A DNA stretch of 64,000 bases. Origin: Candidatus Palauibacter sp. Lineage in GTDB: Bacteria > Gemmatimonadota > Gemmatimonadetes > Palauibacterales > Palauibacteraceae. This document shows positions 21,701 to 24,729 of this stretch, in pieces. A program made the position numbers and the translations under genes. The notes below the pieces were generated by a model. That model did not search any database. It was not told the DNA's origin and saw only the letters and a program-made list of their open reading frames with translations. Position 1 is the stretch's first letter; each line of letters opens with the position of its first letter. Where the stretch lies: NCBI RefSeq assembly GCF_965208055.1, contig NZ_CBDBNY010000004.1, positions 389,706 to 453,705 on the forward strand, read 5' to 3'.

Positions 21701-24700
21701 GAGCACTGAAGTGGATCCCCGAGAATCCGGACGACTACAACCTGCAACTGCTCGACCAGGCTTATTCGATGCTCCGTCCCGAAGAGCACACGGCCATGGT
21801 TCCGAATGACCACCGCGAGCGGCTGGAGAACTGGTTCAAGGGGGAGTCGAACGCCGTCAACTGCCTGGTCTGCACGCCCACGCTCGAACTCGGGATCGAC
21901 ATCGGTCGCCTCGATTCGGTCCTGATGCGTAACGTTCCGCCGCTGCCCGCCAACTACTGGCAACGCGCCGGCAGGGCAGGGCGCCGGCACCGCATGGCGG
22001 TCAACATGACCTATTGCCGCCCGGTCTCCCACGACCGGGCCTACTTCGCCGAGCCCCCGAAGCTGCTGGACGGCCGCATCGACCCGCCGGCCTTCAATCT
22101 CCGCAACGAAGTGATGGTGGCCAAGCATGTCCACGCCACCGTCATCGCCGCTCTCCACCGCCATGGCCGCGACCCTCGACGGCCCGAGGCTGAGCGCAGG
22201 AGGACGCGGGAAGTATTGGCCGCCTGCCTTCCGCAGCGGGTCAAGCCGTACTTGTTCGACCACGGTGTCGTCCGGCGTGAACCCTTCGACTTCGATCTGC
22301 TGCGCGAACTCGTCCGCGACAACAGATCGGACCTGGTGGACCGGGTTTGCGGGGTCTTCAGCGGGGGCTGGCCCGAGGAGGATTCGGACGTCGTGACGCC
22401 CGACGCCCTCCGAATGCATGTGGATGAGTTCGCCGATGAATTGGAGACGGTCGTGACGCGCCTGCGCCGCCGTCTGCGGTGGGCGATGGACCAGATTCGG
22501 CGGCTGAACGCGCTGCGAGAGAAGCACGGCACCCTTGAGGGAGAAGACGAAGCTCTGTTCAGGCGCTGCGGCCGGCTCGTCGCGCGGCTGAAAGGCGAGG
22601 ATCGCGGACGTCGCCACGCCGAAGGGCACGACTCCTCGATCACGTTCAGCGTTCTAGCGGCGGAGGGCTTCCTTCCCGGCTACGGTCTGGAGACCGGCTA
22701 CGTGATGGCATGGGCGGAGATACCGTTCTGGCTGGACGGCGCCATGGACTTCGTCCTGCCCAGGGCGCCGGCGACCGCGCTCCGCGAATACGTCCCCGGC
22801 AACCTTATCTACGCCAACGGACACCGCTTCGTTGCCCGGCGCTTCCATCGTGACTTCGCAGACGAACGCGTCGAGATGCCTGTGTACGAGGTGTCCTCCG
22901 CGCACCAGGCCGTCAGGGAGACCTCGGTCGGTGCATCGTCGTCGCTCGCCGGTGAGACGCTCCAGGCCATGGCGGTGTGCGATGTCGACCTGAGCCACAC
23001 ATCCCATATCTCCGACGACGAGGAATTGCGCTTCCAGTTGGGTGTCGCCGTGTACGGACTCGAACTCGGGCAGCACAGCGGCGGGAGGGCCTACGGTTGG
23101 GGCGAGAGGCCGCTCCTCATGCGGCGGGGCGTACGCATGCGCCTCGTCAACGTCGGGGCTTCGGAGCCGATCAGGGCAAGAGACAGCTTCGGCTATCCCG
23201 TCTGCACGATCTGCGGCCAGAGCGTGTCGCCGCTGTCATCGCAACCACAGCGTCGAAGCTTCCGCGAATCGCACGGTCAACGTTGCGGCCGCGAGCCGAG
23301 GCGGATCGGGTTCTACGCCGATATTGCGGCAGACGCGTTGTCGCTCCCCGAGTGCGTCAATGCTACCCAAGCCGACAGCGTGCTCGAGGCGTTGCGAATC
23401 GGCGCGACCCGTGTCCTCGACATGCACATGGAGGATCTGCAGATCCTCGTCATCGGAGAGATGGGACGGGACGAGGTGCTGGGACTCCTGTGGGATCCGA
23501 TGGCCGGAGGCTCGGGGCTGCTCGACCGCCTGTGCGAGCGCTTCGCGGAGATCGTAGCTGTCGCCCGCGAGGTCGTAGAGGGTTGCCCGAGCGTCTGCGG
23601 GTCGTCGTGTATCGATTGTCTGCAGACCTTCCGCAACGCGTACTACCACTCCAGCCTGGACCGGAGGGCCGCTCTGGACGCGCTCGGGGAGTGGGGAGAG
23701 CAACTCGCGTTCCGGCACGATGTCCCGCCGCGGCAACCTGCATCCACGCCCGCCGATGATGCGGTGCCCGTCAATCTGGCCGAGAGGAAGCTGCGCCATC
23801 TCCTCCTCCGGGCGGGATTCGGGGAGGGCACGCGCGGAGAACAGATCCGGCTCGACAGCGCCCTTGGCACGACTACGCCCGACGTCATCTACCGCGAGGA
23901 TGATGACGGTTTCTGCAAGGGCGTGTGCATCTACCTTGACGGAATGAGCGCGCACCTGCACGGCAGCCCCGAGACCGCCGCGAGGGATCGGGAGATTCGC
24001 CACTGGCTGCGGGGCAGCGGCTACGAAGTCCTGGAGATTCCGGCTAACGAACTCGACGACGAGGGCGCAATGACGGGCCATTTCCGTCGCCTCGCGAACT
24101 ATCTGGGCCAACCTAATCGCGGGCGAGATCTTTCCGACGATCGGAGTTGGTTCGCGGATCCCGATCCATCGGGTAAAACAGACGATCCAGCAGACATCCC
24201 GCGTTTGCGCCTGGTTACTCCCACTCCCGAGAGTCGCTACCGAACATGCGTCCCGCTGGTGCCGCTGCGAGCGGCGGCGGGAGCCTTTGGCGATCCGAAC
24301 GAGACGCTTGACGAGTGGGACCGAGACTGGGTAGCCGTCAACACGGTTCGTCGGCTCCGGGACGGAATGTTCGTGGCTCGCGTGACCGGCCGCTCGATGG
24401 AGCCGCGTATTCCGGATGGTTCGTATTGCCTCTTCGCAAGTCCTGTAACCGGCTCGCGCCAGGGGCGCACGGTGCTGGTGATCATGCGGGACGATGTGGA
24501 CCCGGAGACGGGCGCCCGGTTCACCGTGAAGCGATACCGAAGCGAGAAGACGGAGGATGAGAATGGCTGGCGACACGCCAAGATCAGCCTGGAGCCAACC
24601 AACCCGGATTTCGACCCGATCATCCTCAGAGTGGATGACGAGGCGGCGGTGGGCGTCGTGGCGGAACTCGTTGAAGTCATCGGGCTCACCCCCCCCCTGA

Positions 24701-24729
24701 ACTGTAGTCGCGTGTGGTCCCGGGGCTGA
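18724..24729 (+). CDS. 2001-aa fusion protein: DEAD/DEAH helicase with zinc-ribbon insertions, DUF1998 (MrfA-Zn-like) module, DUF559-like PD-(D/E)xK module and LexA-type S24 peptidase domain
   Basis: Motifs seen:
- Walker A GTGSGKT at aa 116-122.
- DEAH at aa 272-275.
- Four CxxC pairs at aa 525-644.
- CxxC...Cx4C at aa 970-991.
- Motif VI QRAGRAGRR at aa 1080-1088.
- DUF1998-like Cys clusters GYPVCTICGQ and GCPSVCGSSCIDC.
- TPDVIY...CIYLDG...RDREIRHWLRGSGYEVLEI.
- C-terminal VPLVPLRAAAGAF, GRSMEP and FTVKRY.

The start may be TTG 18724 or ATG 18733. Confidence 0.9.
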   Translation: MASMALNPVAYIEKVAKSFLRYQLTAYPFSDPHLLGQMRELLSLDHTRASPLLRGPYVSLSRPFRAGASVEQMVDEGLLHTHLATRIPSRITHFYSHQEQAIRAIAEGRTTLISTGTGSGKTECFLYPVVSQALSLRDESAAPGVSAVIVYPMNALAEDQLMRIRGLLAGTGVPFGIYVGKTPERESDVVGAKLRPGSSREDYLARLEKARRDGTGESVYPSEEVCSRQAMRTPGKQPRILLTNVKQLELLLTRQKDIELFEDARLDHLVFDEAHTFTGAMGAETACLIRRLRSFCNIDPGHTTCIATSATIADSREPGAARDFAARFFGVPAGEVLTVGEDYEAETWGEPRVVPPTPDGDPSRILDRSVRAVEDATGADVARAYRSLSGGDLPAQDDGDWPGALHAALARNELVYRLNEQLAGPRALDELPKALERHVGRPVTEAEILTWLTLGAAARRAGRPLLRPVIHGFVRGIGGSVVSFPEDRERARLWLTARDDAPSDVFEGGPEPRGDEYAHLPVTTCTVCGQHYYIAFLKDFSFTGKRPGGGEADRDGMHWAPLDETNGGKRVVLVDRLIGETERDGEASAPRRTAPIHLCRRCGAAHGDHADRCRACGRVGATVALHAIRQNADNPGRLTSCLSCGSNGRRVMGRYREPARPVRAVTVADVHVLTQDMVHHAERPRLLVFCDNRQDAAFQAGWMKDHARRFRLRALMAEGIREHPGGSVGDLAAFLDDRLEREETLSRALAPEVWQVARREGSGGRHARERRKYLRIQVLREVALSARQALGLEPWGRLKVEYAGLSASLPWIQEQANRLGIPADRLRDGVASVLDYFRRRGALLDPEYNLFTRYWDEGSAEVQQGFLPGFIKPLGLKLRRGPEEKSEWVMQWLSSAGDTTMRQIARKWGEPTDSVEPFLEGLFAFLVRRKLVKPVRLLGARGRPLPNLENVHQVNGDALRLDPNKGVYRCAKCRRTTTRELPHRLCPAWRCDGALKWIPENPDDYNLQLLDQAYSMLRPEEHTAMVPNDHRERLENWFKGESNAVNCLVCTPTLELGIDIGRLDSVLMRNVPPLPANYWQRAGRAGRRHRMAVNMTYCRPVSHDRAYFAEPPKLLDGRIDPPAFNLRNEVMVAKHVHATVIAALHRHGRDPRRPEAERRRTREVLAACLPQRVKPYLFDHGVVRREPFDFDLLRELVRDNRSDLVDRVCGVFSGGWPEEDSDVVTPDALRMHVDEFADELETVVTRLRRRLRWAMDQIRRLNALREKHGTLEGEDEALFRRCGRLVARLKGEDRGRRHAEGHDSSITFSVLAAEGFLPGYGLETGYVMAWAEIPFWLDGAMDFVLPRAPATALREYVPGNLIYANGHRFVARRFHRDFADERVEMPVYEVSSAHQAVRETSVGASSSLAGETLQAMAVCDVDLSHTSHISDDEELRFQLGVAVYGLELGQHSGGRAYGWGERPLLMRRGVRMRLVNVGASEPIRARDSFGYPVCTICGQSVSPLSSQPQRRSFRESHGQRCGREPRRIGFYADIAADALSLPECVNATQADSVLEALRIGATRVLDMHMEDLQILVIGEMGRDEVLGLLWDPMAGGSGLLDRLCERFAEIVAVAREVVEGCPSVCGSSCIDCLQTFRNAYYHSSLDRRAALDALGEWGEQLAFRHDVPPRQPASTPADDAVPVNLAERKLRHLLLRAGFGEGTRGEQIRLDSALGTTTPDVIYREDDDGFCKGVCIYLDGMSAHLHGSPETAARDREIRHWLRGSGYEVLEIPANELDDEGAMTGHFRRLANYLGQPNRGRDLSDDRSWFADPDPSGKTDDPADIPRLRLVTPTPESRYRTCVPLVPLRAAAGAFGDPNETLDEWDRDWVAVNTVRRLRDGMFVARVTGRSMEPRIPDGSYCLFASPVTGSRQGRTVLVIMRDDVDPETGARFTVKRYRSEKTEDENGWRHAKISLEPTNPDFDPIILRVDDEAAVGVVAELVEVIGLTPPLNCSRVWSRG

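Follow-up and report, generated by a model that had tools for sequence, protein, structure and literature searches.

The helicase gene and its C-terminal module

The 64,000-nucleotide stretch of a Candidatus Palauibacter contig analysed here (NZ_CBDBNY010000004.1, positions 389,706 to 453,705 of the forward strand; hereafter the window, with a G+C content of 64-70%) carries a DruE-like defence helicase of the YprA family. The last ~175 residues of this helicase form, by profile and fold matches, a LexA/UmuD-type Ser-Lys autoprotease module with intact catalytic residues and its own Ala-Gly loop. In the list of open reading frames (ORFs) and their translations, the helicase gene spans 18724-24729 on the plus strand and comprises 2001 codons from a TTG. 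The true start is likely the ATG at 18733, three codons downstream, which would lower by 3 all residue numbers given here, as these are counted from the TTG at 18724. The best PADLOC models for the protein are DruE3 (E 1.1e-100) and DruE1 (E 8.1e-99), with DrmA (8e-15), DpdJ and BrxH scoring far more weakly; on these scores, therefore, the 2001-residue protein is assigned to the Druantia-type, YprA-family helicases, in agreement with an earlier sequence-only reading of this DNA that had placed the module at the C-terminus of a defence helicase. More than 100 full-length homologues share 65-98% identity with it. Pfam locates a RecA1 helicase lobe (DEAD/ResIII; PF00270, E 1.7e-21, and PF04851) at residues 94-279 (19003-19560, plus strand, as are all features of the gene), a RecA2 lobe (Helicase_C; PF00271, E 3e-11) at residues 1023-1088 (21790-21987) and an MrfA Zn-binding domain (MZB/DUF1998; PF09369, 28 bits against a gathering score of 24.2) at residues 1555-1633 (23386-23622), the last being a hallmark of the YprA family. 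No N-terminal helix-turn-helix (HTH) of the LexA/cI type is found by Pfam in the helicase, which has DEAD, Helicase_C and MZB domains instead and is thus no repressor.

Between the MZB domain and the S24 module lies a region of about 115 residues (aa ~1680-1795, 23761-24108) with the motif set TTPDVIYR ... CIYLDGMSAHLHG ... GYEVLEI, of which TTPDVIYR ... CIYLDG.S.H.HG ... GYEV.EI is invariant in our alignment of homologues (A2). This motif set reads like a putative restriction-endonuclease fold of the Vsr/DUF559 type, and Vsr domains have been reported in the "Druantia type III-like" branch of helicases (PMC12458937). AlphaFold2 (AF2) models the region with an alpha-beta3-alpha-beta-alpha topology at a predicted local distance difference test (pLDDT) score of 75-89. 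Its sole fold match, to TnsA, is weak (E 0.13) and comes from a low-confidence model; profile searches returned no match in the PDB, and relaxed Pfam scans of residues 1593-1826 gave only noise and no assignment. Of the "helicase-nuclease" body proposed by the sequence-only reading, the helicase part is thus borne out, whereas the nuclease label depends on the Vsr/DUF559-like motifs and a weak fold signal.

A variable linker (aa 1796-1827, 24109-24204), delimited by column variability and by the ends of orthologues that lack the module, leads into the conserved S24 module (aa 1828-1987, 24205-24684). The module is followed by a non-conserved tail (aa 1988-2001, 24685-24726) that corresponds mostly to gaps in homologues and is modelled at pLDDT <50. 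The conserved unit begins with an extra strand, "LRLV", at Leu1828 and continues into an invariant RY..CVPL; the module therefore starts ~50 nucleotides upstream of position 24256, where it had been placed from the letters alone.

The identity of the module is supported at several levels. Peptidase_S24 (PF00717) matches residues 1849-1979 with 34.1 bits in the whole protein, against a gathering score of 23.3, and with 39.6 bits (E 4.7e-10) when the C-terminal 209 residues are scanned alone, a score far beyond chance. NCBIfam gives sub-threshold matches only, to UmuD and LexA, with UmuD the best. A single-sequence phmmer search of the C-terminus against the PDB found no match and a profile was needed; the profile A1, built from 24 diverse copies of the module, matched LexA and UmuD chains only, weakly (E 0.04-0.2). 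In the HMMER alignment of A1, the Ser of the GxSM motif falls on LexA Ser119 and the Lys of the TVKR motif on position 156, which is Ala in the K156A mutant chains. With hhalign, the match to E. coli LexA (a sequence compared with the LexA text in the PDB alignments) has a probability of 91-94% and pairs S1891 with S119 and K1936 with K156; both programs also pair LEPTNPDF with LexA LLPENSEF. The AF2 model of the module, computed on A1, has a pLDDT of 84.7 and a predicted template modelling (pTM) score of 0.82, and its top 36 Foldseek matches in the PDB are all C-terminal domains of LexA, lambda cI or UmuD (E 2e-5 to 1e-2), with type I signal peptidases (S26) ranking below. Pfam, HMMER, Foldseek and hhalign thus agree on a complete S24 module with a catalytic Ser/Lys pair and an upstream Ala-Gly motif, as the sequence-only reading had claimed. 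All four blocks that it had aligned with LexA by eye recur in the HMMER alignments to LexA chains and in the hhalign alignment to E. coli LexA, and profile alignment likewise sets its proposed catalytic residues on the catalytic columns: Ser1891 (GRSMEP, codon TCG, 24394-24396) as the predicted nucleophile and Lys1936 (FTVKRY, codon AAG, 24529-24531) as the predicted general base.

The predicted scissile pair, Ala1852-Gly1853, lies in ...CVPLVPLRAAA/GAFGDP at 24277-24282 (codons GCG, 24277-24279, and GGA, 24280-24282). A direct codon check reproduces the residue and codon positions given earlier for Ala1852, Gly1853, Ser1891 and Lys1936. The pair is a strong motif match for a scissile bond. 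Five residues separate "PLV" from the Ala-Gly bond in the module, against four in LexA and cI; the UmuD cleavage site, PLF-SDLVQ-C/G, has the same five-residue spacing. The motif proposed as the LexA-equivalent site is therefore conserved as such, yet its register is one residue off that of LexA and its spacing is UmuD-like, and because of this difference the Ala-Gly bond is referred to as the predicted scissile bond throughout.

Conservation and distribution of the module

Ala-Gly, Ser and Lys are retained together in 393 of 419 non-redundant full-coverage copies of the module, across all partner classes, which argues for selection for catalysis. Column by column, the scissile site has Ala in 432 and Gly in 421 of 459 family members (AG in ~94%), the nucleophile column has Ser in 451, and the general-base column has Lys in 448 and Arg in 7. 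Identity between modules amounts to 60-70% across phyla and partners, with 30 invariant columns in A1; modules of HsdR and type ISP enzymes are intermixed at ~70-80% identity and the DruE set stands slightly apart.

Among the 120 closest full-length homologues of the helicase (65-98% identity), 109 carry the module. The remaining 11, which are 73-79% identical and hence as close as the S24-bearing ones, are ~1810 residues long and end in the variable linker, ~10 residues past "DRSWF" (P0032-P0083). Since these orthologues stop exactly in the linker, the module behaves, as judged from the alignments, as a cleanly bounded regulatory accessory. At one S24-less locus that we examined, no S24 gene was found nearby.

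The module extends well beyond DruE-like helicases. A search with the module alone returned 1826 proteins, and a profile run exhaustively against 1.84 billion cluster representatives returned 2362 clusters at E<1e-3, 464 of them at E<1e-30, with the module nearly always at the extreme C-terminus. A scan of 185,579 genomes (one per species) yielded 530 loci, in Gemmatimonadota, Acidobacteriota, Spirochaetia, Binatia, Gammaproteobacteria, Myxococcota, Chloroflexi, Planctomycetota and Nitrospirota; one carrier, Syntrophus buswellii DM-2 (L040), is cultured, and the modules of two loci (L004 and L012) are 94-95% identical to that of the helicase in the window. The fusion, treated as a one-off in the sequence-only reading, is thus one member of a large family. 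Within the window itself no second copy of the module was found. A search of phages gave no module match, and a search of plasmids gave one distant, unannotated match.

Partner classes were counted for the best 80 of the 530 genome loci, which comprise 42 DruE-type genes, 26 HsdR genes with a C-terminal module, 3 HsdR genes with an inserted module, 3 type ISP genes and 6 short ORFs or remnants. A gene-fusion or assembly artefact was rejected, since the same architecture is seen at 42 genome loci and in more than 100 protein clusters. The type I HsdR carriers combine HSDR_N, SWI2_SNF2 and T1R_D3 domains with a C-terminal module; the type ISP carriers combine Eco57I/N6_Mtase and Type_ISP_C with a C-terminal module; and the module is likewise C-terminal in MmeI-like type IIG enzymes and in other ResIII/Helicase_C proteins. 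Many short matches that appear as "stand-alone" S24 family peptidases stem from DruE, HsdR or ISP genes, either as pieces of their C-terminal ends or as remnants. Taken together, the alignments and domain architectures identify the module as a member of a distinct, highly conserved and, by its distribution, mobile S24 sub-family found on DruE-like, HsdR, ISP and MmeI-like IIG enzymes.

In the HsdR insertion variants (L056, 7074-10712; L078, 7095-10706; and L072, partial), an intact module, with AG, Ser and Lys present, sits between the HSDR_N nuclease plus Q-motif (AGYHQFHAV) on one side and Walker A (HTQGSGKS) on the other. Self-cleavage in these proteins would part the nuclease from the motor.

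Some carriers extend past the module. The type ISP carriers P0252 (aa 961-1166), P0261, P0262 and L052 (aa 1331-1533) have an additional conserved domain of ~130 residues after S24, made of two repeats of the form "...AIRELA..LGY.R.G......DNALRTAVRRGVL...", and the IIG carrier P0274 (aa 1311-1490) has a different extension. Pfam gives no match for the post-S24 domains of either the ISP or the IIG carriers; upon cleavage they would come off together with the S24 core. At L003/L044, a 245-residue ORF (8001-8738) beside a large gene for a UvrD-like helicase comprises only a Type_ISP_C end and an S24 module, and is apparently what remains of a type ISP gene that has decayed.

Genomic setting of the helicase

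The helicase gene closes a defence island of ~5.2-24.8 kb that is flanked by housekeeping genes. It has its own upstream intergenic region, following a divergent gene for a 520-residue Fic-domain protein that resembles PADLOC SoFic/PDC-S04 (16988-18550, minus strand; a candidate defence gene). Downstream, and convergent with the end of the helicase gene, lies a gene for a 377-residue protein (24881-26014, minus strand) with a uracil-DNA glycosylase (UDG)-superfamily domain in its C-terminal third (aa 231-357); its N-terminal two thirds gave no match.

The island opens with a gene for a DrmD-like SNF2 helicase (5262-8834, plus strand; PADLOC DrmD, E 1e-190), which overlaps by 4 nucleotides a DrmMI/type IIG methyltransferase-nuclease gene on the same strand. 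The latter is read as two same-frame ORFs (8831-12349 and 12392-14263) separated by a single in-frame TAG (12347-12349), and both halves match one PADLOC model, REase_MTase_IIG, at positions 3-1056 and 1150-1497; the split could reflect a pseudogene, a sequencing error, read-through or a genuinely split gene. The two genes form a DISARM-like pair without DrmA, DrmB and DrmC. They are followed on the plus strand by two further candidate defence genes, one for a protein with Schlafen AlbA_2 and HATPase_c_4 domains (13909-15480), the other for a 425-residue protein with a weak TIR-effector match (15623-16900; E 2e-8). Because the listed TTG start of the Schlafen/AlbA_2 ORF creates a ~350-nucleotide overlap with the preceding gene, its true start probably lies later. 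Outside the island, three consecutive ORFs of the amidohydrolase family (591, 768 and 624 residues; 29940-34539, plus strand), overlapping as listed, look like a tandem array of paralogues.

No other Dru protein was matched by PADLOC among the nine neighbours scanned, and none of the partners DruH (type III), DruABCD (type I) or DruMFG (type II) adjoins the helicase gene. Judged by its gene content, the locus is not a canonical Druantia operon of any of the three types (I, II or III). DISARM was rejected as well: DrmD-like and DrmMI/IIG-like genes are present at 5262-14263, whereas DrmB and DrmC were not found and the helicase scores far better as DruE than as DrmA. Homologues of the helicase at two other loci (P0013 and P0097) are also solo genes among unrelated defence genes, without a conserved partner. 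Two islands with helicase homologues, L001 (1230-3415) and L002 (3771-8001), contain modules for prokaryotic ubiquitin-like conjugation (Multi_ubiq, Prok-E2, ThiF) and M78-peptidase/HTH pairs, which illustrates how variable the neighbourhood of these helicases is.

Regulatory role and relation to known systems

The occurrence of the module on DruE, HsdR, ISP and IIG enzymes suggests an undescribed DNA-damage-linked switch in DNA-cutting immune enzymes. We regard as evenly poised the general proposal that a LexA-like autoprotease cassette, grafted repeatedly onto at least four classes of immune motor enzymes, serves as a cis-acting switch that responds to activated RecA or DNA damage and ties activity or half-life to the SOS response. 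Within this proposal we infer self-cleavage, its trigger by activated RecA, the use of a degron and the direction of regulation. The specific account that we favour, and hold tentatively, is that the module is a grafted LexA/UmuD-type autoprotease whose self-cut, set off by an activated-RecA type of trigger, turns the enzyme off. The module would stay uncleaved while the enzyme is on duty. A LexA-type trigger, most plausibly a RecA filament on single-stranded DNA (ssDNA) arising from DNA damage or heavy recombination, would then move the A1852-G1853 bond into the Ser1891/Lys1936 site; the helicase chain would cut itself and set free the S24 core (~150 residues), and the helicase body would be left with ...PLRAAA-COOH, an ssrA/LexA-like C-terminal degron for ClpXP. 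The net effect would be an inactivated enzyme, that is, an SOS-coupled, built-in "restriction alleviation" or brake on autoimmunity, which would shield a host chromosome that contains ssDNA gaps, forks and unmodified repair tracts.

Several observations point to this direction. The module sits on classical restriction enzymes, which must act at once on incoming DNA, and type I enzymes are known to be inactivated by proteolysis when host DNA is endangered: ClpXP-dependent restriction alleviation is described for EcoKI HsdR, as is a switching-off of type I restriction when the chromosome gains unmodified sites after damage, repair or recombination (PMC11109961, PMC4231737, 10.1101/2024.10.21.619520). 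The cut in the HsdR insertion variants would separate nuclease from motor, and in every architecture the ...PL(R/K)AAA-COOH end would stay on the nuclease-bearing fragment; in LexA-like proteins, latent ClpXP C-degrons directly precede the cleavage site (PMC5742171, which cites Neher 2003 and Niu 2010). The intermediates on which Druantia III DruE loads are rich in ssDNA, and it appears to compete with RecA for them (PMC13192584); because the host makes the same ssDNA-rich structures during the SOS response, the logic of a brake would extend to the DruE-like helicase.

A number of points weigh against such a brake. An ungapped profile alignment leaves the Ala-Gly pair shifted by one residue from LexA A84-G85, and the Lys hairpin is ~17 residues longer than in LexA, owing to two insertions of ~8 and ~9 residues around it. 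The extra N-terminal strand "LRLV", absent from LexA, could hold the fragments together after cleavage. Because cleavage of the C-terminal fusions removes only the S24 core, an off-switch there needs the degron step, which we purely infer, and the AAA before the Gly may be conserved merely for the needs of the protease itself. Cleavage, RecA dependence and degradation are predictions for every member of the family, and some LexA-like proteins self-cleave without RecA (PMC7101444). DruE is not known to read methylation, and for it activation is as easily imagined as inactivation. Finally, the AF2 model of the nuclease-like region together with S24 (aa 1677-2001, 14 sequences; pLDDT 60, pTM 0.44) is too poor to define any contact between the two, and a fold search with it was uninformative.

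The opposite direction, licensing by cleavage, was proposed by the sequence-only reading. In a model of this kind, the S24 core, while uncleaved, would keep the helicase-nuclease inactive through autoinhibition or by imposing an oligomeric state; RecA activated on ssDNA, in the filaments to which phage replication or DNA damage gives rise, would trigger cleavage and thereby license the enzyme. Cleavage activates UmuD, which is also the best NCBIfam match and has the same cleavage-site spacing, and this precedent counts for licensing. The intact predicted dyad and AG site fit activation equally, the module directly follows the nuclease-like domain, where occlusion is possible, and DruE-type enzymes act on ssDNA-rich replication intermediates, a signal on which activated RecA would build up (PMC13192584). 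Against this stand the S24-less orthologues, which have near-identical bodies and no substitute inhibitor nearby, and the carriers of other classes: on HsdR, ISP and IIG enzymes, waiting for activated RecA would slow the restriction of incoming DNA, and insertion between nuclease and motor in HsdR makes cleavage look destructive. AF2 predicts no confident S24-nuclease interface. The comparative data, above all the module's presence on classical restriction enzymes and its insertion between nuclease and motor in HsdR, thus disfavour the licensing direction; we consider it unlikely, and an off-switch is probably the better of the two.

The S24 core might instead serve mainly for protein-protein contacts, dimerising or docking in the groove of the RecA filament and so recruiting or pairing motor enzymes on DNA, with cleavage slow or incidental and at most a release timer. 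LexA, cI and UmuD C-terminal domains dimerise and bind the RecA groove, and PDB entries 8gms, 8trg and 8gmt, in which such domains act as dimerisation or RecA-groove modules, are among the fold matches. Type I and ISP enzymes cut after two motors cooperate, and the unusually conserved surface of the whole module (60-70% across phyla, 30 invariant columns) suggests a fixed partner such as RecA. Pure binding, however, has no need of a Ser, a Lys and an Ala-Gly that are each kept in about 94-99% of copies, and inactive S24 homologues normally lose their catalytic residues; a role confined to tethering is therefore rather improbable. It is very improbable that the protease leaves its own linker alone and works in trans, be it on a phage protein, on another copy of the enzyme or on a regulator of the host. 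Its active site is intact by sequence and UmuD cleaves intermolecularly within dimers, yet every module has a conserved canonical cleavage loop immediately before it on the same chain, the loci examined share no conserved neighbour gene that could be a substrate, and we know of no general trans-protease role for S24 enzymes.

As anticipated in the sequence-only reading, no precedent came to light: our literature searches, incomplete in coverage, turned up no account of DruE, HsdR, ISP or IIG enzymes that carry an S24 domain, and the survey of the YprA family (PMC12458937) and its supplements do not mention one on DruE. S24 autoproteolysis, DruE helicases and proteolytic restriction alleviation are known parts; their combination over four enzyme classes appears to be undescribed. 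It has long been asked how nuclease-based immune systems spare the host's chromosome while it is being damaged, repaired or recombined, and an answer exists for only a few enzymes, such as EcoKI with ClpXP. Fusing a LexA-type self-cleaving sensor to the enzyme would solve the problem directly and portably, and the occurrence of the module on four enzyme classes from many phyla suggests that the solution is general. If true, and regardless of the direction of the switch, this would be a general principle, and a new one, by which restriction and defence are controlled post-translationally. One Ser, one Lys and one Gly offer a simple handle on the regulation of DruE-like helicases, whose control in partner-less forms is otherwise obscure, and the module would be a natural compact protein cassette that cuts on DNA damage.

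Compared with LexA, UmuD and lambda cI (MEROPS S24), the module has the same fold, the same Ser-Lys dyad columns and an Ala-Gly loop N-terminal to the core; its small-hydrophobic ...AAA before the cut resembles the ...VAA of LexA, and its loop spacing that of UmuD. Unlike these proteins, it has as its N-terminal partner not an HTH but a helicase of ~1800 residues, or an HsdR, ISP or IIG enzyme. It is a divergent sub-family relative to LexA (27-40 Pfam bits; E ~0.04 by profile), with the extra strand ("LRLV..RY..C") and a lengthened hairpin after the Lys (DPETG.RYTVKRY.SEK....WRH). LexA C-terminal domains would be expected to be far less conserved across phyla than the 60-70% seen for the module.

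Among Druantia systems, C-terminal nucleases of the phospholipase D (PLD) type occur in III-A and of the Vsr type in some III-like members. The helicase shares its DEAD, Helicase_C and MZB/DUF1998 core with DruE of the "type III-like / III-B" branch, and its Vsr-like motif pattern after MZB may correspond to the Vsr domain reported for that branch; it differs in carrying the S24 module, which is unmentioned in the survey of that branch and its supplements (PMC12458937). It also differs from Druantia in standing without an adjoining DruH or other partner, here and at two homologous loci.

In the restriction alleviation of EcoKI, too, as described in the sources cited above, a translocating motor is shut off post-translationally, through proteolysis acting on HsdR, once damage, repair or recombination endangers host DNA, and the protease, ClpXP, is the one proposed here for the degron step. 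In EcoKI the stalled or translocating complex is recognised in trans by ClpXP, whereas here the proposed sensor and the first cut would lie in cis and respond to a LexA-type signal. CapH-CapP and similar pairs also link a DNA-damage or ssDNA signal to defence output via proteolysis. In those pairs, a separate repressor and metallopeptidase act on transcription, whereas here the S24 domain is fused to the effector enzyme.

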